The notes: generated by a model not told the origin, from the letters alone. Shown: positions 14,549 to 42,189, counted from the stretch's first letter. The stretch: DNA of 64,000 bases from an uncultured Desulfobacteraceae bacterium (GCA_964526655.1 CAZGIZ010000001.1:6220-70219); one strand, 5' to 3'. A program made the numbers and translations.

Positions 14549-14908
14549 ATGTCAAAGCCACATTCTTATCCACATGTAAAAGCACTAGAAAATCTAATTG
14601 TTAATAGAGAGGATATCTGTATTTGCGGGATTATTTTGACCGAAGTGCTCAAAGGAATAAAAAAAGACAATGAATTTAGACGCACTCGGGATTTATTTAG
14701 TTCCTTAATTTTTTTGCCGATGCGGTACTCTTCTTTTTTACGATCAGCGGAGATCTATCGTAAACTTCGACGGAAAGGTATTACGATAAGAAAATCTTTG
14801 GATTGTATGATTGCCTCTATTGCTATTGAAAATGAAATCCCGCTTCTTCATAATGATAAAGATTTCTTACCAATTGAAAAAAGCTTCGGTTTAAAAAAAT
14901 ATAAATAG
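14549..14908 (+). pseudogene. PIN-domain (VapC-like) toxin gene, 5'-truncated
   Basis: 119-aa. Matches VapC from the central ..LTEVL.G.. segment to the C-terminal LHNDKDF. The N-terminal LDTN strand carrying the first catalytic Asp is missing. An in-frame stop lies at 14459-14461, with no alternative start and no upstream antitoxin ORF. Confidence 0.5.
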
Positions 14909-16010
14909 ACGAAGATAATCGAGTAGCTTGTGATTCGGGGTCAGACCACGGCAAGTAACTCATCAGGCTACGCCTTCGGCTACGACCCGACAGGCCGATG
15001 CCATAAGAGAGAATTCTTGATCAAATTCTCAAAGGAGAGGTATCTGCGATGGCTGTACCGGGGCGGAAAGCGCTTAACCGGTCTACCCTGACGTGAATGA
15101 AGTAGTAGTCATTAGGCTTTTGGGAAGAATGGCAACATTGTCAAAATCCCCACATGTCAAGGGGCGGTCAGGGATGAATCGGAAATAGAGGTTCTGTTAG
15201 GCCCGGGTTTGGACTCGTTAGATTAAGGGAAACCCTGGCCGGGGAGTCTCCTTTACAACGCAGTGAGCAGTACCGCGATTTTTCAGAGGCATTATGAATT
15301 GGTGGCCCAGGACATAGCCCGTTCTTGATGTACGATCCGGTACGCGACATGCAAAAAGCGATTTATGAGGATGTCCGGGCCCAGTTCGGCAGCTTGAGGT
15401 TAGCACTCTTGTGGCTGCATTCGTTCGAGGAGCCCTTTCTTGACGCTGAGGAGATGGATGCTTTGGGAAGGAGGACGGACTTCATAGTAGAAGGCACCCG
15501 GTTCACGGGGGCGCTCTGCTGTCTTGTGTTGAAAAAAATTGAGTAGAATAAATATCTCCAGATCCTGCTCAAGCCGAGAAACCAAGATGTTCGCATCTCA
15601 AATCAAATTATTCGTTATAGAGCATCCATAAATATATCATTGATCATGGAGAACTGGAGATTGTTGAATTTAAAAATCTCCAATTCTCAGCAGTGACATA
15701 TTGATTGACATAATAAATCTATAGGATTTCATGAATTCTCTCTCAGGTAGCCGCCGCATTTTTTTCAAGATGCGATTGATGAATATCTTAGAGAAATAGT
15801 CTATTTTCTTCCCTGACTATTCACCCACAATCAAGGAAAATGAGGATACCCTCCCCCACAGATCGGGGTTTTTTTCTTTGGAATTTTGTGATATGTTCTC
15901 ATAAAAAACTGGCCTGTTTTATAGTGCTTATGTATAAGGATATTCTGTCGTATTTTGAGAGACATCTAAAGGAACAGGGCCTTCGCCATGGGATAACACT
16001 GGTACTACTA

Positions 16011-17963
16011 ATGAATCATTCAGCGCGGATTCATATCTTCGTTCTGCTTATCGTTTTCCTCCAGCTTATCTACCTGCTCATACCCCCCCATTCCTGGAGC
16101 AGGGATGCCCTCAAAGTGGGCGTGCTTCGGTCCAATCCCCCTTTTTCTTTCATTGATAAGAATAACAATATTCTCAGGGGGTTTAGCGTGGACATAGCAA
16201 AACTGGTAGTAGGGACAATGGGATTCAACGCCGAGTTCTACGCCATGAACGGTTCGCGTTTGATGAAGGCCTTGAGCGATGGAAGGATCGATCTTATAAG
16301 CGGTATTATGATTAGCCCTGAAACTGCAAAAGATATCAATCTCATTGAAACGGGGATCCATGTCGAAAGAAAGTTCTTTGTGAGTCACGAATGCCTGACC
16401 ATCACCTGCTATAAAGACCTCCCCGGACATACCCTGGCCTTAGAGCGGGGACGGGATGTTTCGAGATACCTACCTTCCTTAGGAAAGGTAAGTTTTCTGG
16501 AAACGGGCTCCCAGGAAGAAGCGCTCACTTTCCTGAACTCAGGCCAGGCCCAGGTATATATATCGGATTGCAGTGTTTCCTCATTGTATATCATCCAGAA
16601 AAAGGGCCTGCAGAATATCAAAGAAGTAGGAATTCCCATAGAAACGGTTCCATTGGCTCTGGCCGTAAAAAAGGGGAACACGGAACTCCTCACCTCCCTG
16701 AGTGTTGCCTTTGGAAAAATTCTGGAAAACAAGAGTTACGATACCTTGTACAAGAAATGGATAGGCCGGGATATCCGATTCAATAAGTGGAGCGAATATA
16801 TCAGGTTTGTCCTGGCGGCCGTAGGGTTGACTCTCTTTGTTTTGCTTGGATTTATTTTCTGGAATCGCATGCTCAAGAGGAAGGTCCTTCATATAACCAG
16901 TGACCTCCAAAGATCGGAGCAAAAGTACAGGGACCTGATTGAATCATCTCCCGATATGATACATCTGATCTCGCCGGCCGGTGAGGTAAGACATGCAAAC
17001 AAGATTGCCTTATTGCACCTGGGGTATAGCGAAAACGAAATAACCACCCTTAGGATGCATGACCTGGTGTTGTCCCACCAGAAAGAGGATATGACGGAGT
17101 TTATAGATAAGGTCTTTCAAGCGGGATATTCAAATAAGGAATTCACTTTCAAGGCCAAGGAAGGAGATAAGGTCCATGTTGAGATGGTGGCGACCCTCGT
17201 GAAGGGATCTAACCGTTCCGAGGACCTCGCTTGCTGCTTCTCAAGGGATCTGACCGAACGAAAGCGGATAGAGGAGGATCTTATTCATTCGGACCGGCTG
17301 GCGATCATGGGGCAGATGGCGGCAGGAATCGCCCATGAAATCAATAATCCCCTGGGTATTATTTTGACCAACGCGGAAGATTTGCTCCACCATGAGCTCA
17401 AAGAGGAAGACTCCCATGAAAGTCTCAAATCCATAGAGAGAAATGCGCTCAGGGCGGGAAAAATCATCGAGGATCTGCTTACCTTCACACGTCCCACCCC
17501 TCCGGAAGTCACACCCATCGACCTTATACAGCTTATAGACAGCAGCCTGCTTTTCTTGAAACAAAGGCTCAAACAGAAGAGAATAAAGATCGAAAGATTC
17601 TATCCGGATGATATGATCTTGTTCAACGGCGATGAGAATTCGATCCAGCAATTATTGATAAACCTGATTTTAAACGCCATTCAGGCGATCAAAATAGAAG
17701 GCCGGATAACGATCCGTGTCAATACCCATGGAAGGAAAGATAACAGGCATGTGATCCTCAAAGTTGAGGATAACGGGATAGGGATTCCCGAAAAGGATCT
17801 TCCGAAAGTCTTTGATCCTTTTTTCACCTCACGAAAAGAAAAAGGGTTCGGACTGGGTCTATTTACTTCGAGAATTATTGTGGAAAAACATCACGGCTCC
17901 CTCACTGCGCAATCCAGTCCGGGAGAAGGGACTATAATGACTATAGAATTGCCCATAGGATAG
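16011..17963 (+). CDS. sensor histidine kinase with periplasmic SBP-type-3 domain, TM, PAS, HisKA and HATPase domains
   Basis: The ORF is open from 15840. I prefer ATG 16011 (MNHSARIHIFVLL.. signal anchor). Periplasmic LKVGVL..PPFSF..GFSVD.. solute-binding fold, H-box AHEINNPLG, N-box LILNAIQA, G-boxes EDNGIGIP and GFGLGL. Confidence 0.85.
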   Translation: MNHSARIHIFVLLIVFLQLIYLLIPPHSWSRDALKVGVLRSNPPFSFIDKNNNILRGFSVDIAKLVVGTMGFNAEFYAMNGSRLMKALSDGRIDLISGIMISPETAKDINLIETGIHVERKFFVSHECLTITCYKDLPGHTLALERGRDVSRYLPSLGKVSFLETGSQEEALTFLNSGQAQVYISDCSVSSLYIIQKKGLQNIKEVGIPIETVPLALAVKKGNTELLTSLSVAFGKILENKSYDTLYKKWIGRDIRFNKWSEYIRFVLAAVGLTLFVLLGFIFWNRMLKRKVLHITSDLQRSEQKYRDLIESSPDMIHLISPAGEVRHANKIALLHLGYSENEITTLRMHDLVLSHQKEDMTEFIDKVFQAGYSNKEFTFKAKEGDKVHVEMVATLVKGSNRSEDLACCFSRDLTERKRIEEDLIHSDRLAIMGQMAAGIAHEINNPLGIILTNAEDLLHHELKEEDSHESLKSIERNALRAGKIIEDLLTFTRPTPPEVTPIDLIQLIDSSLLFLKQRLKQKRIKIERFYPDDMILFNGDENSIQQLLINLILNAIQAIKIEGRITIRVNTHGRKDNRHVILKVEDNGIGIPEKDLPKVFDPFFTSRKEKGFGLGLFTSRIIVEKHHGSLTAQSSPGEGTIMTIELPIG

Positions 17964-17977
17964 AAGGAGAATGCTCC

Positions 17978-19345
17978 GTGAATGAAAGAATACTTATCGT
18001 CGATGACGAGCTTGAAATGCTGCAAGTTTTGAGCCGTCTTTTCTCGAGAAAAGGATACGAAGTCCATATTGCGGAAACCGGCGAGGAAGGGTGGAAGGCC
18101 ATAGAGGAGACCATGTTCGATCTTGTAATATCCGATATGGCCATGGAAGATTTGGATGGCCTCGAACTCCTGGACCGGGTTCGCTCAACGGATGCGACGA
18201 TCCCATTCATTATCATTACCGGAGTAGGCACCATCGAAAGTGCTGTCCAGGCCATCAAGATGGGTGCATTTCACTACATCACCAAACCTTTTAAGAACAG
18301 GGACATCGAGATCCTCGCCCAAAGGGCCCTGGAATACGGCAAGTTGCACCGAAAGCTCGATAATCTGCGTCTGCATGATGAAGATGGAAGTCTGCCTCAG
18401 ATGCTCATTGGAGCGAGCAAGAGCATGCATGACCTTATGCATTGCGTAGAAAAGGTCTCCGATTCCCTGGCACCCGTCCTGATTCAGGGTGAGACCGGAA
18501 CGGGTAAGTCTCTCCTGGCTGAAAAAATTCACGAGAATAGTTCTCGAAGAGAAAAGCCATTTCTTACGATTGACTGTGGCGCGCTCACCGAAACCCTGCT
18601 CGAGAGCGAGTTGTTCGGTCATGTGAGAGGGGCTTTTACCGGGGCCTTACGCGCCAAAAGAGGTCTTCTTGAAGAGACGCAAGGGGGAACTATCTTTCTT
18701 GATGAGATCTGTGAAATAACCCCTCCGACCCAGGTAAAGCTTCTCAGGGCCATTCAAGAAGGCGAGATAAAGCCTGTGGGCGGCAACAATACAGTCCGGA
18801 TTGATGTTCGATTCATCTCGGCCACAAGCCGTAACCTGGAAATGGAGGTTCAAATAGGTAACTTCCGTGAAGAACTCTACTACCGCCTCGCGGTTGTACC
18901 TCTTCACTTACCCCCACTGCGCGAACGGCGGGAAGACATACCCCTCCTTATCGATTTTTTTTTGAAAAAGTTTTGCAAGAGGTACAAAAAAAGGATTAGC
19001 CTCATCAAACCGGAGGTGTTGGAGATGTTTCTCCAATCTCTCTGGAAAGGCAACATCCGTGAATTGGCAAATATCCTGGAAAGGGGTGTGCTCCTTGCGG
19101 AAAACGAGGTCATTTCGATGGATTGTATCATGAGCACATATCCTCACGAGCGCCTCACCAAGAAACCGGGGCAGGAAAGTCCGGCATTACCCCTGAGACA
19201 GGTGGTTGAAGAAGCAGAGAAGAAGGCAATCATCCAGGCCCTTAAAAATGCCAACAACAACCGAAGTCAGACAGCCCGCCTCCTCGGGATCAGCCGGAGG
19301 GCACTCTACGATAAAATCGCAGCCTACAATCTGATGAAGGTTTGA
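17978..19345 (+). CDS. sigma-54-dependent response regulator (NtrC family: REC + AAA+ + Fis-type HTH)
   Basis: 455-aa. REC domain (ILIVDDE..DLVISDMAMEDLDG), Walker A GETGTGKS, sigma-54 contact motif GAFTGA, C-terminal HTH NRSQTARLLGISRRALYDKI. Confidence 0.9.
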   Translation: MNERILIVDDELEMLQVLSRLFSRKGYEVHIAETGEEGWKAIEETMFDLVISDMAMEDLDGLELLDRVRSTDATIPFIIITGVGTIESAVQAIKMGAFHYITKPFKNRDIEILAQRALEYGKLHRKLDNLRLHDEDGSLPQMLIGASKSMHDLMHCVEKVSDSLAPVLIQGETGTGKSLLAEKIHENSSRREKPFLTIDCGALTETLLESELFGHVRGAFTGALRAKRGLLEETQGGTIFLDEICEITPPTQVKLLRAIQEGEIKPVGGNNTVRIDVRFISATSRNLEMEVQIGNFREELYYRLAVVPLHLPPLRERREDIPLLIDFFLKKFCKRYKKRISLIKPEVLEMFLQSLWKGNIRELANILERGVLLAENEVISMDCIMSTYPHERLTKKPGQESPALPLRQVVEEAEKKAIIQALKNANNNRSQTARLLGISRRALYDKIAAYNLMKV

Positions 19346-19502
19346 CGGCGTGGGCGTTTGGATTCCCCCGGTGTGCAACCCTCATTACAATTGTAAAATA
19401 TTCTTCCCAAAGGTTTAAGGTGTAAAATATTTCGATTGTTTCGCTCTAAAAAAATAATTAATTATTCCATATAGTTATTTGAATGTTATGGCGTCCTGCT
19501 CC

Positions 19503-19518
19503 TGGCATGTTTTTCGCA
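19503..19518 (+). promoter_or_regulatory. weak second sigma-54-like element (TGGCAT-N5-TCGCA)
   Basis: GG/GC spacing is correct but the -12 box is degenerate, and it sits about 300 nt from the first gene. It may be fortuitous. Confidence 0.2.
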
Positions 19519-19702
19519 TTCTGGATTGGTCATATGAGACAAAAGTTAGGGAATTAGGGCCAATACCGCGAAGAGAGGGCTTTAACAGAGTGAAAAAAAA
19601 CCTGACACTAATGCTTTGAAAATATTGAGTGAAAAAGGTAGATATTGTGATTTTTTATCGCTTTTTCAGTCAGTTGATTAGGCGGTCCGACGATCCGGGT
19701 AC

Positions 19703-19718
19703 TGGCACAAAGGTTGCT
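19703..19718 (+). promoter_or_regulatory. sigma-54 (-24/-12) promoter
   Basis: TGGCAC-aaagg-TTGCT matches the consensus TGGCAC-N5-TTGCW exactly (GG 19704-05, GC 19716-17). It lies about 90 nt upstream of ATG 19809 and about 360 nt downstream of the activator gene. Confidence 0.7.
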
Positions 19719-19808
19719 GTTTGATAAGGGAGGGGTGGGAATATGGAGGTCCAGCGTAGATCTGGGGTCAATGAAACGCTAACTATAACTTCCCGGAGGT
19801 AATGAAAA

Positions 19809-20303
19809 ATGAGAATGAAAAAAACGACAGTGGTCTTCGCAATCCTGGCGATGATAATGGGCTTTGCATTCGCCCGGGCGGCGACGGGAGCGGATCTCAT
19901 CATCGTGGCCAGTAAGGCAACCCAGGAAGCTTCACAAAACTGGGTTGGATTTTTAAAGACAAGTGAGGTTCCCTTTAAGCTTGTTACGCCGCAGGAATTT
20001 GCAAATTATAAACAGCAGAAATACCTTTTTTTCCTGGGCGGCGTAGATGAAACGGAGGGCATCGCTGGTCCTGTGAAAGAGGCCCTCACCAAGGACGAGT
20101 TTCAGTGGGTCAGCCAGCCGGGCAATGGTAAATTGTATGTTAAATCCGATATATGGGCACCCGGGCAACGTATCGTTATTGTTGCAGGATCAGATTTAAA
20201 AGCTTCGGAAGAGGCCAGGAAAACCACGAGGGAGCAGTGGTTTGCAATACTCACCGATTGGTTTGACCTCGAACAAGGGCCTGGTGGACTCCATACCTAT
20301 TAG
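19809..20303 (+). CDS. exported hypothetical protein (orphan)
   Basis: 164-aa. GGAGG lies 9 nt upstream of the start. Signal peptide MRMKKTTVVFAILAMIMGFAFARA. No family recognised. Confidence 0.6.
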   Translation: MRMKKTTVVFAILAMIMGFAFARAATGADLIIVASKATQEASQNWVGFLKTSEVPFKLVTPQEFANYKQQKYLFFLGGVDETEGIAGPVKEALTKDEFQWVSQPGNGKLYVKSDIWAPGQRIVIVAGSDLKASEEARKTTREQWFAILTDWFDLEQGPGGLHTY

Positions 20304-20400
20304 AAACCTTTTTTTTGCCGCCGGTTCTTTTATGATAACGCCTATTTTTTGACCCGATGGTCGTGTGAAGAAATAATAGAACCGAAGCGATTTAAGGAGG

Positions 20401-21807
20401 TTGATTATGAAAAAGTTAATCTTTCAAATGATATTGTATGCATCCTTGTTTATTCCTGGAGGGCTCTTTGCCTTTCCGACGGTTTTTCCGCACGGCACCA
20501 CGATCTATAAGCCTGAAAAGTGTTACAGCGGTTTTACCATCCTGACGACCGAGGGCTATCAGACTATCCTCATCGACATGAACGGCAATGTGGTCCACCA
20601 TTGGGCAAATTTGTGCGATGAGGAACACCCCGCCAAACTCCTTCCGGGCGGATATGCCATGGGCGCCACGGGGGGGAGGGGGCGGTTATTCGGCAATGAG
20701 GACTCCAATGATCTTTCAGTGGTGGATTGGAATGGAAATATCGTCTGGACCTATAAAAAGGCCGGTGTTCATCATGACTTCGAGAGGGAGGGCAACCCTG
20801 TGGGATACTATGTCCCCGGTATGGATTCATACGTTGACAAGGGTAAGACCCTGATCCTTTCTCACAAAATCGTAAAAAATAAAAAAATCAGTGATAAACC
20901 CCTTTATGACGATTTCATTTTTGAGGTGGACTACAGCGGGAAGATCCTTTTTGAATGGCTGGCCAGCGAATACATTGATGAAATGGGATTTGATCGACTA
21001 GCCAGGATCGTCATGTACCGGTATCCAAACTATACCATGACACGGACACCCGGCGTTGTTGGGGGAGACTGGATCCATGTAAACACGGCTTCCTGGCTTG
21101 GCCCTAATAAATGGTATGATCAGGGGGACGATCGTTTCCATCCCGACAACATCATCTATGACGGCCGTCAAACCAATACCACCGGCATTATCGACAGGAA
21201 GACCGGTAAGCTCGTCTGGCACATGGGTCCTGATTTTCTTCAGAGCCGTGAATTGATGAAGCTGGGTGTCACCGTCGGCCTCCACCATGCGCATATGATT
21301 CCCAAGGGTCTGCCCGGAGATGGAAATATCATCCTTTTCGACAATGGGGGTTATGCGGGATTCGGTGAACCCAATCAGGCCTCCCCTTACGGCATGAATA
21401 ACGTCAGGAGGGACTATTCGAGGGTGATAGAATTCAACCCCGTAACCCTTGAGATGGTATGGGAGTACGACGCCCATAAAGCCGGGTATAGGGACATGTA
21501 CAAGTTCTATAGCGACTACGTCAGCTCTGCCCAGCGCCTGCCGAACGGAAATACCCTGATTGTAGAAGGCGCCTTGGGACGGATTTTTGAGGTAACTCCC
21601 CAATACGAGACGGTCTGGGAGTACGTCAGCCCCTATTACAACGAGAAGGAACACTTTAACCTGGTCTATCGTGCCTACAGGGTGCCCTATGATTATGTTC
21701 CCCAGTTGCAGAAGCCTGTGGAAAAGGCTGTGATTCCGCCTGAAAATTCTACCCTGAGACTGAAAGATCTGACCACGGCACCACCTGCTACACCTTTAGG
21801 GAAGTGA
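20401..21807 (+). CDS. arylsulfotransferase (ASST)-like exported beta-propeller protein
   Basis: 468-aa. AAGGAGG RBS and signal peptide. The N-terminal pattern Y.PEK.Y.G.T.L......T.LIDM.GNVVH.W and C-terminal RLPNGNTLI....GRIFEVT....VWEY are as I recall for ASST-family (PF05935/PF14269-type) proteins. Confidence 0.6.
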   Translation: MIMKKLIFQMILYASLFIPGGLFAFPTVFPHGTTIYKPEKCYSGFTILTTEGYQTILIDMNGNVVHHWANLCDEEHPAKLLPGGYAMGATGGRGRLFGNEDSNDLSVVDWNGNIVWTYKKAGVHHDFEREGNPVGYYVPGMDSYVDKGKTLILSHKIVKNKKISDKPLYDDFIFEVDYSGKILFEWLASEYIDEMGFDRLARIVMYRYPNYTMTRTPGVVGGDWIHVNTASWLGPNKWYDQGDDRFHPDNIIYDGRQTNTTGIIDRKTGKLVWHMGPDFLQSRELMKLGVTVGLHHAHMIPKGLPGDGNIILFDNGGYAGFGEPNQASPYGMNNVRRDYSRVIEFNPVTLEMVWEYDAHKAGYRDMYKFYSDYVSSAQRLPNGNTLIVEGALGRIFEVTPQYETVWEYVSPYYNEKEHFNLVYRAYRVPYDYVPQLQKPVEKAVIPPENSTLRLKDLTTAPPATPLGK

Positions 21808-21913
21808 ACAAATGGACGGCGAAGGGCAATGACCATCAAAGGCAAAATGGATGAAAATCATTGCAGAATTTCCGAGACGTATCATTACATTATCTTAAAA
21901 CGGGTTTGTTTTT

Positions 21914-22309
21914 ATGGGGGTAAAAGAAATGGCATACAGAAAGTTTTTTTATGTATTTTTAACTGTAATCATTTTCGGCCTGGTTTTGGCTTTCGCCGGG
22001 ACTGCCGGTGCGCAGCATGAAGGCGGGCTTGGCGTCAAAAAAATTCCCTTGAATATCGCAACTGTCGATCAGCTGATGAAGATTGACGGCATGACAGAAG
22101 AACTTGCAAAGGCGATCGTGGAATACCGGGAAAAATCGGGCTTTTTTAAAAAGCCTGAAGACCTTCTCAAAGTCCCGGGCGTGACAAAGGAAATTTATGA
22201 AAAACTCAAACCTCAGCAAGGTGTCGAAGGGGATATCTTTTGTGTCCCCAAGGAAGGCACGGAAGACGAGGAAGAGGAAGAACCTTTGTTGAGTCCTTCC
22301 AAGTGTTAG
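21914..22309 (+). CDS. exported ComEA-type helix-hairpin-helix protein with acidic tail and C-terminal Cys
   Basis: 131-aa (alternative start ATG 21929 gives MAYRKFFYVFL.. signal peptide). LNIATVDQLMKIDGMTEELAKAIVEYREKSGFFKKPEDLLKVPGVTKEIYEKLKP matches the ComEA C-terminal HhH domain. Ends ..EDEEEEEPLLSPSKC. Confidence 0.65.
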   Translation: MGVKEMAYRKFFYVFLTVIIFGLVLAFAGTAGAQHEGGLGVKKIPLNIATVDQLMKIDGMTEELAKAIVEYREKSGFFKKPEDLLKVPGVTKEIYEKLKPQQGVEGDIFCVPKEGTEDEEEEEPLLSPSKC

Positions 22310-22320
22310 GGGATCCAAGG

Positions 22321-22344
22321 GCATTTCGCAGGCGAAAGCTTTTT
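22321..22344 (+). terminator. weak intrinsic terminator/attenuator after the first three genes
   Basis: GCATTTCG-cagg-CGAAAGC stem (one mismatch) followed by TTTTT, 12 nt after the stop of the HhH gene. Confidence 0.35.
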
Positions 22345-22456
22345 CCCTCTTAAATTTCGACTGTTTCCCCTTCCCCGGATTCCTTGGGAGGCGCAGTGTG
22401 TCACCGCGGGCAGAACAGGCGACCTCGGGATGACAAACCCCTTTAAGGAGCCAAGA

Positions 22457-25324: not shown

Positions 25325-25364
25325 AGCAGTATCGTTCACTTGAGAAAAAAGAGGGAGAGAGTAA

Positions 25365-26525
25365 ATGACTACCGATGCAATTGCAGTGTCAAAGGGACTA
25401 AGCTTTAAAAAATCTTCCATGTGGAGTACCCTGCCCGGTTTTCATGAAAGCTACCCCGGGCTTTTGGCCCTCATTATCATAGCCGTTTTCTGCGGACTTC
25501 CAGGACTTTCATGGCCCATAACCATCCAGCATTTTTTGGAATATATTGATGAAGTTCTTCCTCCCATTTATGGAAAAGGGCTTTTTACCGACCTGCTGCA
25601 TTTTAATTATGTGGTGATCAGCCTGGCTGCGGGAATTCTGATCAGAAACGTCGCCGGTGTGCCGAAAAGTTGGGAAAAGGGCCTAAGCTACTATTCAGTC
25701 TTTCTGCATGCAGCCATTATTATGCTGGGTTCCCAGTACCTATTGAGAGACATGGTTAAGCTGGGCAGTCTCACTGTCATCATCATGGTCGTCTTTGTCT
25801 TCGGATCCTGTTCCCTCTTAATATGGCTGGGAAGACTTTTCAGACTGGAAGATTCTCTCTGTGGGATCCTGGCGGCAGGTTTCGGGATGTGCGGCGTAAC
25901 AGCTGCTGTAGCCACCGCCCCCATGGTGCGTGCCAGAAGCGAACAGATCACCTATGCCATCGCCGCTTCCGTCTCATTTGGTATCTTCTGTCTGGTCGGC
26001 CTGCCAGCCCTCGGACGGCTTTTGGAGATCACACAGAACTCCTTCGGCGTGGTCAGTGCAACAGGGGTTCCCAATTCCGCACAGGTCATTGCCACGGGGT
26101 TTATGTACGGGTTTGAAGCGGGGAAGGTCGCGGGCTTCGTGAACATCGGGCGGATAGTCCTCATACCGGCGGGGGCATTGTTCATCTATTTCTTTACGAT
26201 GACGCGTGATGTCCTGGCCTCGGAAAAGATCAGCATATTGCAAACGGTGAAGGAAAAATTCCCCATTTATGTTTTAGGGTTCATCATTGTTTGGGGAGCG
26301 AACTGCCTTCACCTTTTCCCGAAACCGGCGGTATTCGCCATGGAAAAAGTGATGATCTGGTTTTTCAGCCTCTCCTTTGTGGGCCTTGGGCTCCAGACCA
26401 AACTATCGGATGTCAGGAAGGCCGGAATTAAGGGCGCCATTGTAGGCTATATGGCAGGCGCCATCAAACTGATATTTGCTCTCATCGTCATCGTTTTCCT
26501 GATGAGACAGGGTTTCTTGAGATGA
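25365..26525 (+). CDS. YeiH/UPF0324 (putative sulfate exporter, PSE) family membrane protein
   Basis: 386-aa polytopic protein. LAAGFGMCGVTAAVATAPMVRA and GLGLQTKLSDVRKAGIKG align with E. coli YeiH IGAGSSICGAAAVLATEPVVKA and ALGLTTHVSALKKAGAKP. Confidence 0.7.
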   Translation: MTTDAIAVSKGLSFKKSSMWSTLPGFHESYPGLLALIIIAVFCGLPGLSWPITIQHFLEYIDEVLPPIYGKGLFTDLLHFNYVVISLAAGILIRNVAGVPKSWEKGLSYYSVFLHAAIIMLGSQYLLRDMVKLGSLTVIIMVVFVFGSCSLLIWLGRLFRLEDSLCGILAAGFGMCGVTAAVATAPMVRARSEQITYAIAASVSFGIFCLVGLPALGRLLEITQNSFGVVSATGVPNSAQVIATGFMYGFEAGKVAGFVNIGRIVLIPAGALFIYFFTMTRDVLASEKISILQTVKEKFPIYVLGFIIVWGANCLHLFPKPAVFAMEKVMIWFFSLSFVGLGLQTKLSDVRKAGIKGAIVGYMAGAIKLIFALIVIVFLMRQGFLR

Positions 26526-26539
26526 GGAAGGAATAAAAT

Positions 26540-26704
26540 ATGGCGCAAGATTCAAAAGATAAACTTGAAGAAGAGAGAGGAAAAATAAAGGCGCAAACAG
26601 AAGCTCAAATGATGCGATCGCGAGTCAATGACTACGTGGCCATCATTTTGGCCCTCGGCACGGTCTTTCTCCTCTGGATTCTACAGTTGATGGGGTTTTA
26701 TTGA
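26540..26704 (+). CDS. 54-aa micro-protein with C-terminal TM helix (not in the ORF track)
   Basis: My own translation: MAQDSKDKLEEERGKIKAQTEAQMMRSRVNDYVAIILALGTVFLLWILQLMGFY. GAGGAAGGA RBS lies about 7 nt upstream. The stop TGA 26702-04 lies inside the ORF-track TTG-26701 frame and 2 nt upstream of the preferred ATG 26707. Confidence 0.35.
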   Translation: MAQDSKDKLEEERGKIKAQTEAQMMRSRVNDYVAIILALGTVFLLWILQLMGFY

Positions 26705-26706
26705 TT

Positions 26707-27228
26707 ATGGCCGAAAAAGTCCTTCTGCTTTTGGGCATCGCAGACGCGGAAGAAGCCGGCATATACATCAAAAAGGAATCCCATCGCCGTGACGTTAGGG
26801 TAAAGGGCGAGGGCAGACAGCATGAGGAAAATGCGGTCGAGGAGGCCTTCAACTATGCTCGATCGAAGTCAAAATCCGTTGTCGCCGTTCAGGTCCTTTA
26901 CTCCGACCTGTACCATTATGGACATACTGACCTCCTTCTCCCGGGACCCGGGAAAAAACGTTTCCTACTCTACGTCAGGGATGAGGTGCTGAAACAGGCC
27001 ATGGGAAGGGAAAAGGCCCTCCGGGAAAGGGCGCGGAGGCAAGGCATAGCCCTTGAGGTAAGATCGGTTGAATCGCAGGATCCCGCTTCAACCGCCGTTG
27101 AAGAGGCGAAAAAGGGCTACGATGCGATCTTTTTGCCGAAGGAGAGGAAAAGACGATTCCCCCTCTTGAAAAGGAACGTTGAGCAACAATTGCGGAAGCA
27201 GGTACTGACCCCCATCATAAGCTGCTGA
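26707..27228 (+). CDS. universal-stress-protein-like (USP fold) protein lacking the ATP motif
   Basis: About 173 aa (the track starts at TTG 26701). The layout VLLLLG...VVAVQVLY...EVRSVESQDPASTAVEEAKKGYDAIFLP resembles UspA-fold proteins. No G-x2-G-x9-G(S/T) motif is present. Confidence 0.45.
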   Translation: MAEKVLLLLGIADAEEAGIYIKKESHRRDVRVKGEGRQHEENAVEEAFNYARSKSKSVVAVQVLYSDLYHYGHTDLLLPGPGKKRFLLYVRDEVLKQAMGREKALRERARRQGIALEVRSVESQDPASTAVEEAKKGYDAIFLPKERKRRFPLLKRNVEQQLRKQVLTPIISC

Positions 27229-27330
27229 TGAAAAGAAGGGTAGTCCCTTTTGCCCAGGGCGGGTCACCGCACCCGCTCAATCGGGTTGATGCGTTTCTCG
27301 ACCCTGCGGTGCTCGTTGATTGGAAGAAAA

Positions 27331-29493
27331 ATGCCGAAAATCAGTCGTCGTGATTTTATGAAGATGGGTGCCCTGGCCGTGGGCGGAGGGCTGCTATCAC
27401 CCGCTTTGGGCAAGGAAAAACTGATATTCGGCGCCCCCCTGCCCTCGAAATATGTGGATCGGGAAGTGGACAGTTGCTGTCAATTCTGTCAAGTGCGCTG
27501 TACGACGAAGGTCCAGATCAAAAGTGACCGGGTTGTGAACGTCTACGGAAATCCGGAAAATTTCTGGACCGGGGGCGCCATGTGTGCCAAGGGAAAGTCC
27601 ATGGTGGAATTGACCTATAGCCCCTATCGCATTCTGCATCCCCTCCTGCGTGAAGGCGGTGGCTGGAAGCGAATATCCTATCCGCAAGCCCTTAATATGG
27701 TGGCCGAGCGAATCCTCAAGGTTAAAAAAGATTTCCCCGATGACTATGCCCACAGGGTCGCGTTATTTGAACCCCTGTGGGAGTCCAGGGAAAGTGAACT
27801 GGCAGCAGAGGCGGCTTTTCGGCTGGCAGGGTTTCCCGATCTTTGTTCCCCGGGTGACGGCTGCATCGGAAATTCCGCCACTGCGCTTAGTATTTGCCTG
27901 GGCAGCCCGATCTCCCCGACCACTTTAGATGAAGTTCTTAATGCCGAAAAGGTTGTCCTGTTCGGGGCGAACATCGCCGAAATGTATCCGGTCTATGTTC
28001 GCTGGCTCCATCAGGCACGTGAAAAGGGGGTGGAATTGATCTATCTCGATCCTCGCATTACCCCGACGGCCAACTTTTGTAACAAACAGTATCAACCAAG
28101 ACCCGGAACCGATGGCGCCCTGGTTCTTGGAATCATTCGGTTCCTAATAAAGGAAGACCTCTATAACCACGACTATGTCACCTTACACGTAAACGGCTTT
28201 GATGATCTGGCAAAGGCGGCCGACCCCTACACCCCTGAAAGGACGGCCGAAATCACGGGCCTGCCCGTGAAGGAGGTGGTGTTATTGGCCGGGGACCTTG
28301 GCAGGAGCACAAAGACCCTCCTCTGGATGGGAGGCTCTATCTCCCGTTATACCAATGCTATTCAGACGGTTCGCGCCATGATTGCATTGCAGGCAATCAC
28401 GGGAAACCTTTCCGGCCCGGGCAAAGGGATCATGAACGTCCAGGGGGGCAAGCCCGGGGGGGGTGAAAAATTCGAAGAGACCTACCGGTATCCCAAGCTT
28501 TCCTATAGCCTGAATTTCAGAAAGGTGCTCTACAACATGAAACGCGGCATGCTCGACGTGCTTCTTCTGAACTCCAGTTACCGTCGCTACCCGGATGCAA
28601 ACAGGGTCAAAGAGGCTATTTCAAACGTCGGTTTCGTTGTATACCGCGGGTTTTTCATGGACGAGGAGGCGAAACTGGCCCACCTGATCATTCCAGGGAC
28701 CATGGTCTTCGAGAGTGAAGGATCTCAATACGGGGCTCAGCGCCAAGTAGTATGGCGCAACAGGGCCATTCCGAGACCCGGGGAGACGGTTGAAGACTGG
28801 CGCTTCTATTCCGACCTGGGCAAAAAGATATGCGGCGGGGCGTACCCCCCCGTGAACAGCGCCGAAGAAATCTATGAACTGTTCAGAAAATATGCACATA
28901 CCTGGAATGGACTCACCCTGGAACGCTTGAAAAAGACCCCGACAGGGCTCACCTGGCCCTGGCCGTCGACGGATAGACCGGAAGCGAGAGGGACCCTTTA
29001 CCCCGGTGACCGCTTCCTGACCCAGGATGGGAAGGTCGAGCTTCGCTCGCCGGTCCTTGGGCTTATCCGGTGGACTCAGCCGAAGGGGAGCCCCGAAGGT
29101 AACGGCAAAGGAAAGGAGGGATTTCCCCTGATATTTACGCAGGGTAAAGTGGCTTGGCACTGGCAGCATACCTACACCAACTGGTCCTCTTTTATGGGGC
29201 AGTTCTCCAAAGGAAATTATGTCCAGGTCCATCCGGAAACCATTCAGGATCTTCAGATCAAGGACGGCGACTGGGTCTACCTGGAGACGCAGGTAAACAA
29301 AATCAAGGCCAGGGTACAAATATCGGAAGCCATTTTACCCGGTGTCATCTGGACGCCATCGCATCCCGAACCCGATAGCCCCATTCAGGGGAATGCTGGT
29401 CAGTCCATCAACACCATCATCCCCAATTATTGGGATAAGGTCTCGGCCCAGTTCAACGGGTTTGGATGCAGGCTGACCAAAGCGAATATATAA
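27331..29493 (+). CDS. Tat-exported molybdopterin (bis-MGD) oxidoreductase catalytic subunit, Psr/Phs/Arr-like
   Basis: The ORF is open from TTG 27250. ATG 27331 gives MPKISRRDFMKMGALAVGGGLL, a twin-arginine signal. N-terminal FeS motif CCQFCQVRC...CAKG. MopB-family collinearity (GANIAE..P, LIYLDPR.T.TA, PRPGTDGAL). Confidence 0.85.
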   Translation: MPKISRRDFMKMGALAVGGGLLSPALGKEKLIFGAPLPSKYVDREVDSCCQFCQVRCTTKVQIKSDRVVNVYGNPENFWTGGAMCAKGKSMVELTYSPYRILHPLLREGGGWKRISYPQALNMVAERILKVKKDFPDDYAHRVALFEPLWESRESELAAEAAFRLAGFPDLCSPGDGCIGNSATALSICLGSPISPTTLDEVLNAEKVVLFGANIAEMYPVYVRWLHQAREKGVELIYLDPRITPTANFCNKQYQPRPGTDGALVLGIIRFLIKEDLYNHDYVTLHVNGFDDLAKAADPYTPERTAEITGLPVKEVVLLAGDLGRSTKTLLWMGGSISRYTNAIQTVRAMIALQAITGNLSGPGKGIMNVQGGKPGGGEKFEETYRYPKLSYSLNFRKVLYNMKRGMLDVLLLNSSYRRYPDANRVKEAISNVGFVVYRGFFMDEEAKLAHLIIPGTMVFESEGSQYGAQRQVVWRNRAIPRPGETVEDWRFYSDLGKKICGGAYPPVNSAEEIYELFRKYAHTWNGLTLERLKKTPTGLTWPWPSTDRPEARGTLYPGDRFLTQDGKVELRSPVLGLIRWTQPKGSPEGNGKGKEGFPLIFTQGKVAWHWQHTYTNWSSFMGQFSKGNYVQVHPETIQDLQIKDGDWVYLETQVNKIKARVQISEAILPGVIWTPSHPEPDSPIQGNAGQSINTIIPNYWDKVSAQFNGFGCRLTKANI

Positions 29494-29567
29494 CTCGTAT
29501 GCCATTAAAAAAGACATGATTGTCGTTTCAGAAATCATAGGCGTTCAATGAAGGAGGTTTATCTATA

Positions 29568-29912
29568 ATGAAAAAACAATATACTTTGACGATCTTGAGT
29601 TTCAGAACATTAACCTGTTTCTTCCTTTTTATTTTTTCCCTGCTCGCCCTCGGGCCAGCCGGCCTTGCGCAGGAGCAAAAACTCAAAGGCAAGACGGTCA
29701 ATATTAACACGGCCACGCTGGAGCAACTGGAGAAGGTCCCCCTCATGACCAAGGAACTGGCTGAGGGCATCATCAACTATCGCGAAGAAAATGGTGATTT
29801 TCAAGTTTTGGAAGAGCTGCTTCAGGTCCCGGGATTTACACGTGAATTGCTCAGAAAGATGAAGCCCTTCCTGCTGCTGGAAGGCTTGGGCGGCGAGGAA
29901 TGTACCTGCTGA
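29568..29912 (+). CDS. exported ComEA-type helix-hairpin-helix protein ending in Cys-Thr-Cys
   Basis: 114-aa. AAGGAGG RBS and signal peptide ..LLALGPAGLAQE. VNINTATLEQLEKVPLMTKELAEGIINYREENGDFQVLEELLQVPGFTRELLRKMKP matches the HhH domain. Ends GGEECTC. Confidence 0.65.
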   Translation: MKKQYTLTILSFRTLTCFFLFIFSLLALGPAGLAQEQKLKGKTVNINTATLEQLEKVPLMTKELAEGIINYREENGDFQVLEELLQVPGFTRELLRKMKPFLLLEGLGGEECTC

Positions 29913-29954
29913 TACCTTTTACCTGGAATAATCAGGAAGTAAGGGAATCGGGAT

Positions 29955-30587
29955 ATGCGACCGAAATATGGGATGGTAATCGATGCCTCAATCTGCATTA
30001 ACTGTAGGGCATGTATCGTTGCCTGCCAGTTAGAGAATGGAGTTCCACCAGATTTCACACGGGCCTGGATTAAAGAGACTTCTTTAAATAATGGGACGAA
30101 AGTGAATTTTCAACCGGGTAATTGCATGCAGTGCGACATGCCGACCTGTGTGGATGCCTGCCCGGTCAATGCCACCTATAAGGGTAAAGACGGGAGAGTA
30201 ATCATCGATCCTTTACTCTGCATCGGTTGTGGGCTCTGTATTCCCGCTTGCCCCTATGGCGCACGGTTTCTCCACCCATATAGGGATATCGCAGATAAAT
30301 GCGACTTTTGTGGCCACCGATTGAAACGAGGTTTGGAGCCGGCCTGCGTGGTGACCTGCCCTACTGGTGTGCGCCTATTCGGAGATTTCAACGATCCTTC
30401 GAGCAAAGTCAGCCGGCTTGTGAAGCAAGGAGGCCTCGTTCGAGTGGTCAATACCAAAGTCGATACGAAACCAAACATCTACTATTTCAAAAACACGGCC
30501 CCGCTTGACTGGCCGGAGGATCCGGAACTTCCAGATCCGGACGAACTGGAGGAGATCCGTAAGATGAATATTGATGAAAGAGGATGA
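29955..30587 (+). CDS. 4Fe-4S dicluster-domain electron-transfer subunit (PsrB/DmsB/NrfC type, four clusters)
   Basis: 210-aa. Cys groups CINCRACIVAC, CMQCDMPTCVDACP, CIGCGLCIPACP and CDFCGHR..(N)..CVVTCP. No signal peptide, which fits Tat hitch-hiking with the catalytic subunit. Confidence 0.85.
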   Translation: MRPKYGMVIDASICINCRACIVACQLENGVPPDFTRAWIKETSLNNGTKVNFQPGNCMQCDMPTCVDACPVNATYKGKDGRVIIDPLLCIGCGLCIPACPYGARFLHPYRDIADKCDFCGHRLKRGLEPACVVTCPTGVRLFGDFNDPSSKVSRLVKQGGLVRVVNTKVDTKPNIYYFKNTAPLDWPEDPELPDPDELEEIRKMNIDERG

Positions 30588-30775
30588 ATATATTCTATCC
30601 TGGCCGGTCAACCATGTAAAGGTGAGAGTCCATCTGGGCAATCTCTTGTCTGATCGGGGCTCGCGTATTGGAAGTCTCAATTATTTCTCAGGTGGGAAGG
30701 AGGTGAAAAAAGGATTTACCATAGGGAATTGTTGTTAATCCAATTCTTCAACACTGTTTAATAAAGGAGGATAAG

Positions 30776-32140
30776 ATGAAAAAAACATTGAGTCTGCTAT
30801 TCGTTGTTTTCTTTGTGACGGTATGCTTTGGCTCCGCGCTTGCCTATGAAGCCATAGTCGGTCCAACAGGGGTCCTCAAATACGACAGGGAGAAATCCTA
30901 TGGCGGTTATACCCTGTTTGCTCCCATGATCGGTTGTAAAACAACATACCTCATCGACATGGAGGGAGACCTGATCCACAAATGGGAATCAGAATATCCC
31001 CCGGGATTCTATGCTATGCTGCTACCCAATGGCAATCTGCTCCGAGGTGGCAACATGGCGCAAAAGGGAGACAATAAATGTAACATCGGTGGCGCGGCCG
31101 GCACCGTGCAGGAGATCGATTGGGACGGCAATGTGGTTTGGGAGTATAAAATGAACACCCCAACGGAGGTCCAGCACCATTGCTTCGATAGAATGCCCAA
31201 TGGCAATACCCTGATACTTGGCTGGGAGAAAAAGACACGGGATGAATGGATTGCCAAGGGACGCAACCCAGAATCTATCCCCACATCATGTTTCTACCAT
31301 GGATTTCGCTTCATGGACCTTTGGGTGGATTTTGTCCGCGAGGTCGATAAAAATGGTATGACGGTCTGGGAGTGGCATGTATGGGATCATATCGGGCCGG
31401 GCCCCCATCAATTCAACGTCAATTACCAACTCCCTAAGGGTGTCGGAGATTATGAGTGGAATTACGATTGGACCCACTTCAATACATGCGAGTACATTCC
31501 GGAGAATGACTGGCTCCTCCTGAACTCACGTAATTTCAGTGAGTTTTATATTATCGATCACAAGACCGGCCAAATGCTCTATCGATGGGGCAATCCCAGC
31601 ACCTATGGTCAGGGAAGGAGGCCCTCCTGGTTAGATAATGGCGACCAGAAGGTCTTCGGGAACCATAATGCCACATGGTTGGGGAAAAATCGCGTACAGT
31701 TGTTCGATAACGGCTCCGAACGCGCGGAGGGCAACCGCTCGGCGGTAATGGAAATCGACATTACAACAAATAAAATCGTCTGGGAGTACGAGACCAAGAC
31801 ATCCAACAGCTTTTTTTCCTACCGCCAGGGGGCCGCGCAAAGACTGCCTAATGGAAATGTACACGTAACATCCACCCATGGCGGACATCTGTTCGAGGTG
31901 ACCCAGAAAGGGGAGGTAGTGTGGGATTTCGTAAGTCCAGTACGCCTGGGCAAAATGCATTGCTTCTTTGAAGATGGCGACTCGCCCAACGGCATGTTCA
32001 ATATGATCCATAGATCCTATCGCTATGGCGCAGATTATTCAGGCCTGAAGGGCAAGGATTTGAGCAAGAAGGGGCCATTAACCGAGTGTCCCAAGTTTTT
32101 TGAAACCTATAAAACAGATGTAATAGAGAAAAAGAAATAA
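30776..32140 (+). CDS. arylsulfotransferase (ASST)-like exported beta-propeller protein, divergent paralog
   Basis: 454-aa. AAGGAGG RBS, signal peptide ending SALA-YE. Shares YGGYTLFAP....TYLIDMEGDLIHKW and RLPNGN......GHLFEVT..GEVVWDF with the 20401 gene but is otherwise divergent. Confidence 0.6.
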   Translation: MKKTLSLLFVVFFVTVCFGSALAYEAIVGPTGVLKYDREKSYGGYTLFAPMIGCKTTYLIDMEGDLIHKWESEYPPGFYAMLLPNGNLLRGGNMAQKGDNKCNIGGAAGTVQEIDWDGNVVWEYKMNTPTEVQHHCFDRMPNGNTLILGWEKKTRDEWIAKGRNPESIPTSCFYHGFRFMDLWVDFVREVDKNGMTVWEWHVWDHIGPGPHQFNVNYQLPKGVGDYEWNYDWTHFNTCEYIPENDWLLLNSRNFSEFYIIDHKTGQMLYRWGNPSTYGQGRRPSWLDNGDQKVFGNHNATWLGKNRVQLFDNGSERAEGNRSAVMEIDITTNKIVWEYETKTSNSFFSYRQGAAQRLPNGNVHVTSTHGGHLFEVTQKGEVVWDFVSPVRLGKMHCFFEDGDSPNGMFNMIHRSYRYGADYSGLKGKDLSKKGPLTECPKFFETYKTDVIEKKK

Positions 32141-32148
32141 TCCCATAT

Positions 32149-32185
32149 GAAGGCCCTGAGCATGCATGGCATGGTCAGGGCCTTC
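32149..32185. terminator. bidirectional stem-loop between convergent genes (GAAGGCCCTGA-N15-TCAGGGCCTTC)
   Basis: 11-bp perfect arms at 32149-32159 and 32175-32185. The 3' arm plus flank (TCAGGGCCTTCATT) is repeated directly at 32191-32204. Confidence 0.5.
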
Positions 32186-32237
32186 ATTCGTCAGGGCCTT
32201 CATTCCCACGCCCGGCCTGGATATCTACGATTTCCTT

Positions 32238-41251: not shown

Positions 41252-41326
41252 AGGAAAATATCCCCTAAGCCGGATAGGCATGAGAGGGCTCTTTGACGCC
41301 CGGCTTTTGCCGGTCCACTGATTCAG

Positions 41327-41357
41327 GCCCGCTTCATCCAAGAAGCGGGCTTTTTTT
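41327..41357 (+). terminator. rho-independent terminator of sat
   Basis: GCCCGCTTC-atccaa-GAAGCGGGC followed by TTTTTTT. Confidence 0.75.
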
Positions 41358-41403
41358 ACTGTCACAAAAAAATGGCATAAGTAGGTCAAGGCCTGGAGTG
41401 AAG

Positions 41404-42177: not shown

Positions 42178-42189
42178 ATCGAGGTCTAT

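Follow-up and report, generated by a model that had tools for sequence, protein, structure and literature searches.

The window analysed in this study, a stretch of 64,000 nucleotides (nt) from an uncultured Desulfobacteraceae bacterium (GCA_964526655.1 CAZGIZ010000001.1:6220-70219), carries on its + strand, from 15840 to 32140, a sensor histidine kinase gene, an activator gene and a promoter, followed by 11 genes and one micro-open reading frame (micro-ORF), as found from the ORF listing and translations. The run includes, in order, a secreted 164-aa protein (p164), an ASST-like beta-propeller (ASST1), a secreted HHH_3 protein (HhH1), a duplicated 964-aa protein (p964), a YeiH-family membrane transporter, a micro-protein (p54), a USP-like protein, a molybdopterin oxidoreductase (MopB), a second HHH_3 protein (HhH2), an iron-sulfur (FeS) subunit and a second ASST-like propeller (ASST2). 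ORF listing together with Pfam and NCBIfam scans bore out the gene list, positions and strand given in a preliminary description made from the sequence alone. Genes of the run overlap or are separated by gaps of 14-188 bp, and a 463-bp intergenic region lies between the activator gene and the first cluster gene. The 3' limit of the cluster is 32140, where a convergent metallo-beta-lactamase (MBL) lipoprotein gene follows and then the housekeeping genes LysM, dprA and topA. All soluble parts bear a Sec signal peptide or a Tat signal in translations and alignment, the USP-like protein being called cytoplasmic, and the periplasmic or membrane location proposed for the encoded machine was supported. 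The locus is best explained as one co-inherited periplasmic and membrane machine composed of four modules.

Related loci were fetched with the 964-aa protein as query from one-genome-per-species contigs, and a synteny table was built for the resulting 27 loci by tblastn and clustering. They span metagenome-assembled genomes (MAGs) of Desulfatiglandales, Desulfobacterales/Desulfobacteraceae, Desulfarculus (Desulfarculales), Smithella and Acidobacteriota, the closest being a Guaymas-type Deltaproteobacteria MAG with 77% p964 identity, and the protein homolog set also contained a p964 homolog from Tectomicrobia. The core order was [p164]-ASST1-HhH1-p964-YeiH-p54-USP, plus ASST2, and in this comparison of loci the invariant core appears as ASST, HhH-PSKC, p964 and YeiH. 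The neighbourhood check proposed in the preliminary description therefore identified the genes as one conserved functional unit, a cluster widespread among bacteria of the sediment sulfate-reducer type. A chance juxtaposition of unrelated units, for which the heterogeneous domain content alone would speak, is refuted by the synteny of the core, since the gene set and its adjacency recur in 27 loci of distant lineages, and we regard its probability as negligible.

The two secreted ASST-like beta-propellers, ASST1 (20401-21807) and ASST2 (30776-32140), matched PF05935 with 80.2 and 82.4 bits, respectively, against a gathering cut-off of 24.2. They share 27% identity and fall into two separate orthologous groups, ASST2 representing the second paralog family. 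The view of the locus as a recently duplicated module had to be abandoned, the ASST and HhH pairs being ancient and functionally distinct orthologous groups. The ASST2 profile aligned to E. coli AssT (3elq) with an E-value of 3e-5, a weak but full-register match spanning the C-terminal half only, and in this alignment the invariant ASST2 residues H234, N236, R252 and H297 fall on H356, N358, R374 and H436 of the E. coli enzyme (EcAST). The matching columns of ASST1, located by hhalign profile-profile alignment, are H226, N228, R256 and H295 and are likewise invariant. According to a 2026 review, H356, N358 and R374 of EcAST are sulfuryl-binding and H436 is the transiently sulfated histidine, and the known ASST donors are aryl sulfates, not thiosulfonates (PMC13426309). 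In addition, a conserved HH pair (H124/H125 in ASST1 and H134/H135 in ASST2) is a candidate equivalent of His252. Because the residues aligned to the catalytic set are retained, ASST1 and ASST2 are probably active sulfuryl transferases. Like E. coli AssT with DsbL/DsbI, they are secreted beta-propellers (PF05935/PF14269) with His/Asn/Arg/His-aligned residues and thiol-disulfide neighbours; unlike it, they are about 450 aa long, show no detectable similarity to the N-terminal part of EcAST, and form two divergent paralog families inside a cluster of 12 genes that also encodes carriers, a transporter and a redox module.

The first gene of the run, p164 (19809-20303), encodes a 164-aa protein with a signal peptide seen in translation and an aromatic H-x-Y at its end. 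It is kept in 16 loci, mostly immediately 5' of an ASST gene. No Pfam match was found for p164 at the gathering cut-off, the best being a sub-threshold one to S_layer_C (17 bits against a cut-off of 23.9); a word-based homolog search gave two close matches, and an AlphaFold (AF2) model built from three sequences was discarded (pLDDT 46).

HhH1 (21914-22309) and HhH2 (29568-29912) both carry Sec signal peptides and matched PF12836 (HHH_3) in Pfam with 66.8 and 69.3 bits, and for TIGR00426 (cut-off 53.1) HhH2 scored above the cut-off (56 bits) and HhH1 below it (48.9 bits). Their C-termini are strongly conserved. In HhH1 an acidic stretch is followed by PSKC-COOH in 25 of 25 locus copies and in all 120 database homologs, and a second cysteine lies 21 residues upstream of the terminal one in 105 of these 120. 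HhH2, which ends with GGxxCTC-COOH in the window, terminates with CTC or CNC in all 25 copies (GGx[ED]CTC-COOH, or GCNC/DCNC-COOH); the CTC copies were found exclusively with MopB-FeS (16 of 16 loci), and the nine CNC copies with a tetrahaem cytochrome. At the other end of HhH1, the predicted mature N-terminus reads Q-H-E-G-G-L-G, and H35, G37, G38, L39 and G40 are present in 120 of 120 homologs (P0121-P0240); this motif may serve to bind a metal or a partner. Sulfation of a tyrosine in the HhH1 tail was weighed and set aside, since 38 of the 120 homologs, the window protein among them, have Phe at the aromatic position.

The HHH_3 and TIGR00426 matches, and database names that are all either "hypothetical" or "ComEA-like" for the HhH homologs, as for those of p964, might suggest ComEA-like DNA receptors in a locus for uptake or catabolism of extracellular DNA, a view to which the Tat-exported phosphoesterase-like genes of some relatives would also lend themselves. 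The hairpins of the canonical HhH consensus, Gly-h-Gly, contact the DNA backbone. Those of HhH1, however, are G-M-T (119/120) and G-[IM]-T (116/120) rather than G-h-G, and those of HhH2 are P-L-I-T and G-F-x, or G-x-N/D, so that the second glycine is missing from both hairpins in essentially all members, and invariant C-terminal cysteines are foreign to ComEA. No competence genes were found within the cluster or the 27 loci, nor any ComEC, nuclease or pilus genes; dprA (36107) is 4 kb from the cluster and is not part of the conserved synteny. DNA uptake would also leave ASST, MopB and YeiH unaccounted for. We therefore consider the ComEA-type DNA binding raised in the preliminary description unlikely for these proteins, and a DNA-uptake locus very improbable.

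Since a cysteine at the tip of a C-terminal arm is a hallmark of SoxY, DsrC and the tail of PAPS reductase, HhH1 and HhH2 are by analogy read as carriers or shuttles that would offer partner enzymes a thiol or, with C-x-C, a dithiol/disulfide. The C-terminal GGCGG arm of SoxY holds sulfur intermediates, and DsrC uses a C-terminal cysteine arm. SoxYZ of Sox thiosulfate oxidation resembles the proteins described here in being a small periplasmic protein with a reactive cysteine on a glycine-containing arm at the far C-terminus and several partner enzymes. The two differ in arm sequence (GGCGG in SoxY, GGxxCTC or PSKC here) and in fold (Ig-like in SoxY, HhH here), and the likeness is a functional analogy only, the carrier role being one that we infer. 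No Sox genes were found in any of the 27 loci.

The largest protein of the cluster, p964 (22430-25324), is predicted to be an N-terminally anchored, tandemly duplicated all-beta periplasmic protein. Its internal duplication extends over about 460 aa with 23% identity (E 2e-32), and the AF2 model built with 33 homologs (pLDDT 80.8, pTM 0.78) comprises an N-terminal helix and then two all-beta repeats, each closed by a helix. No Pfam match at all was obtained for p964, and a profile search against PDB sequences returned noise only. At least 245 homologs were nevertheless present in a set of 5.8 billion proteins, each of them nameless and without a Pfam domain, and an exhaustive HMMER search over 1.84 billion representatives gave 167 clusters. 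Of the earlier characterization as a duplicated orphan of about 955 aa, the duplication is thus retained, with a length of 964 aa, and the orphan status is not. A CGHC motif is present in 119 of 120 p964 homologs, in the C-terminal repeat only; C-G-H-C is the active-site sequence of protein disulfide isomerase. Single-repeat relatives of p964 have CAEC or CSSC at this position. These relatives (P0261, P0266, P0279 and P0290, on L028-L032) are 380-530 aa long and lie outside the cluster, some having a CxxC at the CGHC site or a C-terminal transmembrane (TM) anchor. No ASST gene was found near them on their short contigs, where the neighbours encode a ferredoxin, a Meth_synt_2 protein and a cytochrome c.

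Foldseek returned a sole high-probability match for the p964 model, 3u2g, the DUF1608 domain of an S-layer protein of Methanosarcina acetivorans (probability 1.0, E 2.6e-5, with a TM-score of 0.12/0.31, the latter on the target), and the distant relative P0279 matched PF07752 at E 0.0015, below the cut-off. As judged from the model, an S-layer relationship of p964 is suggestive and not established. It invites an explanation in which p964 would form an S-layer-like lattice, either periplasmic or at the cell surface, the ASSTs would sulfate envelope components, and the HhH proteins would act as disulfide-tethered lattice adaptors; the weak S-layer Pfam matches in p164 and in the distant p964 relative, and the tandem repeats shared with the S-layer protein MA0829, are in keeping with it. 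MA0829 of M. acetivorans, with its tandem DUF1608, has a tandem all-beta architecture like that of p964 and a local fold match to it, but there is no detectable sequence similarity, the repeats are about 450 aa here and about 260 aa there, and p964 is N-terminally anchored in a didermic bacterial host and has the CGHC motif. Against the envelope explanation, the TM-score is low (0.31 even on the target), strict coupling to a YeiH transporter and redox modules would be unusual for structural proteins, and inducible regulation by sigma-54 or GntR suggests substrate-dependent expression; we hold this explanation to be improbable.

Directly 3' of p964 lies the gene of a YeiH/PSE-family membrane transporter (25365-26525), in the window as well as in all 25 related loci that extend past p964. 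The protein matched PF03601 with 159.5 bits (cut-off 24.5) and TIGR00698 with 88.5 bits, under the cut-off of 232.6. In Salmonella, YeiH is the main determinant of sulfite-stress resistance (PMC12880088). This link of the family to sulfite and the retention of the catalytic-set residues in the ASSTs sustain the tie to sulfur-oxyanion and aryl-sulfate chemistry that had been proposed for the locus. The protein shares PF03601 with other members of the YeiH/PSE family (TC 2.A.98), in which the sulfite link is known from Salmonella, and differs from them in that it is always encoded after p964 and before a tail-anchored micro-protein and a USP-like protein. The micro-protein, p54 (26540-26704), is 54-57 aa long and consists of R-x-x-x-D-E-Y, a C-terminal TM helix and a G-[LF]-Y end; its conservation directly 3' of YeiH in some 20 related loci marks the 54-aa micro-ORF as a real gene, as had been supposed. 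The USP-like protein (26701-27228), for which a weak Usp match was obtained (E 0.007), is kept in 21 loci after YeiH-p54. Most USP-like proteins end in Cys (...ISC, ...IAC, ...VVC), and a LYHYGH motif is common to them. We infer that p964, YeiH, p54 and the USP-like protein form a membrane complex.

The redox module of the window consists of MopB, a Tat-exported, Cys-ligated and Fdh/Nas-like molybdoenzyme (27250-29493; Pfam, NCBIfam and PDB matches), and a four-cluster [4Fe-4S] electron-transfer subunit resembling TtrB, DsrO and NrfC (29955-30587), with HhH2 encoded between them. MopB probably starts with the Met at 27331 (MPKISRRDF...) and not at 27250. The Tat RR motif, the cysteines of the N-terminal 4Fe-4S cluster (FeS-0) and the Mo-ligand Cys are present in 15 of 15 MopB sequences. 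The best matches of MopB in NCBIfam and PDB were FdhF-type, NasC and NapA, under every curated cut-off: TIGR01591 gave 285 bits against 666, PhsA 211 against 694, TtrA 62 against 1750 and ArrA 50 against 1600. The Psr/Phs/Arr-type assignment of the preliminary description could thus not be upheld. Identity as a formate dehydrogenase was also rejected. In FdhH the ligand Sec140 is followed by the catalytic His141, and Arg333 is the catalytic arginine; MopB has a Cys at the ligand position but is not a formate dehydrogenase because the counterparts of His141 (Ile or Val in 15/15) and Arg333 (Gln in 12/15, the window included) are replaced. The FeS subunit matched Fer4_11 with 79 bits, its best NCBIfam matches being TtrB, DsrO and NrfC, each below cut-off, and it is without the C-terminal TM helix present in the 251-aa orthologs of relatives.

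No membrane anchor of the NrfD or cytochrome b type was found in the cluster, the rest of the window having been Pfam-scanned in part, and no multihaem ORF (at least two CxxCH) was found in the 64-kb window. In relatives, MopB-FeS is followed by an NrfD protein (L006, L008 and others) or by cytochrome b561 (Ni_hydr_CYTB family) along with a TM-tailed FeS subunit (L005, L007, L015, L016 and L020), and the closest relative, L024, has a HybA-like FeS protein and a 1105-aa NrfD-multihaem fusion. The earlier reading of an anchor-less enzyme thus applies to this cluster but is specific to this genome, relatives carrying NrfD, cytochrome b561 or the NrfD-multihaem fusion; by this comparison the anchor-less state may represent a local loss, or the anchor may be encoded elsewhere.

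Sixteen loci have MopB-HhH2-FeS. Where MopB-FeS is missing, the core is adjoined by three genes, for HhH(CNC), a tetrahaem cytochrome c554-like protein and a DUF1573 protein, and both redox modules occur together in two loci. All loci that cover both core flanks have either MopB-FeS or the tetrahaem cytochrome beside a C-x-C HhH protein, and from this distribution one redox module or the other appears obligatory. Desulfatiglans-type loci (L001 3725-4936 and about seven others) have two more conserved genes past the HhH(CNC)-cytochrome-DUF1573 operon, encoding a cupin-like protein of 179 aa that is Cys-rich at its C-terminus and a 190-aa secreted protein.

Together with its four-cluster FeS partner and the NrfD or cytochrome b anchors of relatives, MopB makes up a standard complex iron-sulfur molybdoenzyme (CISM), and the locus could accordingly encode an ordinary respiratory reductase of this type for an electron acceptor that is inorganic or a small organic compound (thiosulfate, polysulfide, tetrathionate, selenate or arsenate, for example). 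The ASST-like, HhH and p964 proteins would then be accessory or unrelated but co-regulated. Psr, a MopB enzyme, receives sulfur from Sud, and Psr, Phs and Ttr cleave S-S bonds; HhH2-CTC could deliver substrate as Sud does. PsrABC, PhsABC and TtrABC with Sud share with the present genes a Tat-exported MopB, a four-cluster FeS subunit, an NrfD anchor (in relatives here) and possibly a small periplasmic Cys protein that delivers substrate. MopB here is, however, nearer to FdhF, NasC and NapA, is anchor-less in this genome, belongs to a module dispensable in some loci, and scores under every equivalog cut-off. MopB-FeS is absent from at least seven otherwise similar loci (L001-L003, L019, L022, L023 and the L027/L011 pair, from one MAG), where a tetrahaem cytochrome stands beside the C-x-C protein, and since these loci keep the remaining genes, MopB is not part of the invariant core. 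An ordinary CISM-type reductase is accordingly unlikely as the whole explanation, while retaining some weight.

Upstream of the run, the sensor histidine kinase (15840-17963) has a periplasmic SBP_bac_3 domain and PAS, HisKA and HATPase domains in Pfam, plus a TM segment, and the NtrC-type sigma-54 enhancer-binding response regulator (17978-19345) has Response_reg, Sigma54_activat (218 bits) and HTH_8 domains and GAFTGA in its translation. Directly 3' of the activator gene and 92 nt 5' of the first ATG lies the sigma-54 promoter TGGCACAAAGGTTGC (19703-19717, + strand; -24 GG/-12 GC); the exact motif TGGCAC-N5-TTGC has this one match in 64 kb, compared with 0.16 expected. Pfam, the GAFTGA motif and the motif scan therefore agree with the kinase, NtrC-type activator and consensus -24/-12 promoter of the preliminary description. 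A repeat search found TGTAAAATATT twice in direct orientation, at a distance of 29 nt (19392-19431), as a candidate activator-binding site, and an inverted repeat, TGAGTGAAAAAG / CTTTTTCAGTCA (19626-19672), 30-80 nt upstream of the -24 element, as a candidate upstream activating sequence or IHF region. A weaker -24-like element, CTGGCATGTTTTTCGC (19494-19517), is 200 nt upstream of the consensus promoter and falls in a 14-nt direct repeat of that promoter's 5' flank. Scans of the intergenic gaps for terminators and sigma-70 promoters gave no signal over background.

Kinase orthologs adjoin the cluster in L010, L012, L019, L022 and L024, activator orthologs were found in seven loci, and -24/-12-like motifs lie 5' of the cluster in L006, L012, L013, L014, L019 and L022. 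The kinase/activator pair and the motif occur together with the cluster in L006, L012, L013/L014, L019 and L022. L010 and L024 have the pair and no -24/-12 motif within one mismatch, and in eight Desulfatiglans-type loci a GntR-family regulator, recognised by sequence inspection, is directly upstream and no -24/-12 motif was found. Sigma-54 control as first proposed fits the motifs of the window, then, but as far as the loci can tell it is a lineage-specific trait, confined to loci with the kinase/activator pair. In this genome, the solute-sensing kinase and the NtrC-type activator would switch on expression through the sigma-54 promoter.

Of the four modules proposed, the first would comprise the secreted PAPS-independent sulfotransferase-like propellers ASST1 and ASST2 with their small secreted partner p164, and the second the small secreted HhH-fold proteins with a cysteine on a flexible C-terminal arm (PSKC in HhH1, C-x-C in HhH2). 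The third would be the membrane complex of p964 (CGHC), the YeiH-family transporter, the tail-anchored micro-protein and the cytoplasmic USP-like protein, and the fourth an electron-transfer module, namely Tat-MopB with its four-cluster ferredoxin here and an anchored pair and/or tetrahaem cytochrome c elsewhere. Three independent components, that is, the ASST catalytic set, YeiH and a redox module of an S-S-cleaving type, point to sulfuryl or sulfite chemistry, and the three invariant thiol motifs PSKC, CxC and CGHC point to intermediates bound to protein thiols; most likely, the cluster handles sulfate esters or sulfite on protein-bound thiols.

A sulfuryl relay would proceed as follows. The catalytic His of an ASST would accept a sulfuryl group (SO3) from an aryl or other organic sulfate ester and hand it to the Cys at the end of a carrier arm, so that S-sulfocysteine forms; the S-S bond would then be cleaved, with release of sulfite, by MopB or by another thiol, that of C-x-C or CGHC; MopB-FeS or the cytochrome would re-reduce the carrier thiols; and YeiH would carry the sulfite across the cytoplasmic membrane. 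A sulfate reducer would in this way obtain sulfite without ATP-dependent sulfate activation. The window genome encodes ATP sulfurylase, which fits a sulfate reducer and is not specific to one. In PAPS reductase, an S-sulfocysteine forms on the C-terminal tail and thioredoxin resolves it to sulfite. The chemistry proposed here is like that of PAPS/APS reductase (CysH) with thioredoxin, in which a C-terminal-tail S-sulfocysteine is resolved by a CxxC dithiol to sulfite, whereas CysH acts as one enzyme in the cytoplasm, depends on a nucleotide and is homologous to none of the cluster proteins. SoxYZ, DsrC, CysH-thioredoxin and Sud-Psr are the closest functional analogies, and none shows homology with the present carriers. 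We favour the sulfuryl-relay family of mechanisms tentatively, at rather less than even chances; its specific form, a dedicated periplasmic route of organosulfate respiration or sulfuryl relay in sediment sulfate reducers and their relatives, in which a new class of HhH-fold Cys-arm carriers and a YeiH-p964 complex would feed sulfite to the cytoplasmic Dsr pathway, is doubtful by itself.

Several points weigh against the relay. We know of no experiment in which an ASST passed a sulfuryl group to a thiol, nor of a described homolog that does so. The roles of p164, p54, the USP-like protein and p964 are read from position and conservation, and the S-layer similarity of p964 comes down to one local low-TM Foldseek match and one sub-threshold Pfam match in a distant relative. 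Homology gives no guide to the substrate of MopB, which resembles Fdh and Nas enzymes and not Psr or Phs, and with no quinol-oxidising anchor on the window enzyme the electron source is unaccounted for. The physiological role of ASSTs and their natural donors and acceptors are unknown (PMC13426309). The relay also leaves unaccounted for the Tat-exported phosphoesterase-like (ester hydrolase) genes of some relatives, and the data favour neither reductive sulfite release nor sulfite capture or oxidation.

The last point bears on a mechanism running in reverse, in which sulfite, exported by YeiH or external, would be captured by sulfitolysis of a carrier disulfide (C-x-C/CGHC), the ASSTs would discharge the S-sulfocysteine onto phenolic acceptors or water, and electrons from the carrier thiols would pass through MopB-FeS or the cytochrome to quinone, the whole serving as a sulfite detoxification or oxidation device. 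The parts list fits this mechanism and the relay equally, C-x-C and CGHC are typical of redox-active disulfides, and the sulfite resistance given by Salmonella YeiH is most simply explained by export (PMC12880088). Yet the donors known for ASSTs do not include thiosulfonates (PMC13426309), the hosts are mostly sulfate or sulfite reducers, which consume sulfite in the cytoplasm, and nothing in the data speaks on direction either way. We consider the reverse direction unlikely, though worth keeping in view beside the sulfuryl relay.

The literature searched contained no description of the gene combination, of HhH proteins with a C-terminal Cys or of the p964 family, in agreement with the preliminary description, which knew of no system combining these parts. 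The individual parts are of known families (ASST, HHH_3, CISM MopB/FeS, YeiH and NtrC/sigma-54); the system as such is new in kind, with a function to be read only indirectly. It joins ASST, whose role is unknown (PMC13426309), and YeiH, lately tied to sulfite (PMC12880088), in a fixed genetic partnership with two previously unrecognised families, the Cys-ending HhH proteins and the p964 giant, and with a redox module, across many uncultured sediment lineages; no carrier in culture was identified. Should the relay prove true, it would represent a new entry of organic sulfate esters into the anaerobic sulfur cycle, a bypass of ATP-dependent sulfate activation, a first physiological role for ASST enzymes and, following SoxY and DsrC, a third type of sulfur carrier with a Cys arm. 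If it fails, the strict CTC-MopB pairing and the invariant PSKC, CxC and CGHC motifs still offer sharply testable handles.

Further genes were observed in and around the loci. In some relatives the cluster contains inserted Tat-exported genes (L006 3653-5542, L008 2040-4169, L017, L025, L012 7831-9255 and L024 22420-end), among them one for an alkaline-phosphatase-superfamily-like protein of 629-709 aa with a weak Metalloenzyme match only and another for a calcineurin/PhoD-like metallophosphoesterase. Upstream of the cluster in the window, a PIN-domain (toxin-like) protein is encoded at 14549-14908, in an AT-richer spacer between an FGGY sugar kinase gene (12501-14030) and the sensor kinase gene. 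Downstream, the MBL-fold lipoprotein (32238-33269, - strand; signal ...LLSC) is convergent with the cluster end, and the Acidobacteria locus L025 has a homolog of it (32% identity) some 1.5 kb 3' of its cluster. Alkyl or aryl sulfatases occur among MBL-fold enzymes, and a functional tie of the lipoprotein to the cluster is possible but unsupported. At 40061-43236 of the window, genes for ATP sulfurylase (Sat), a second MBL-fold protein and a MoCF_biosynth (molybdopterin-binding, MoeA/MogA-like) protein follow one another; the Sat and MoCF_biosynth genes are consistent, non-specifically, with a sulfate reducer making molybdenum cofactor. Finally, a 710-aa ORF antisense to the p964 gene (23288-25420, - strand) is most likely a by-product of codon composition.

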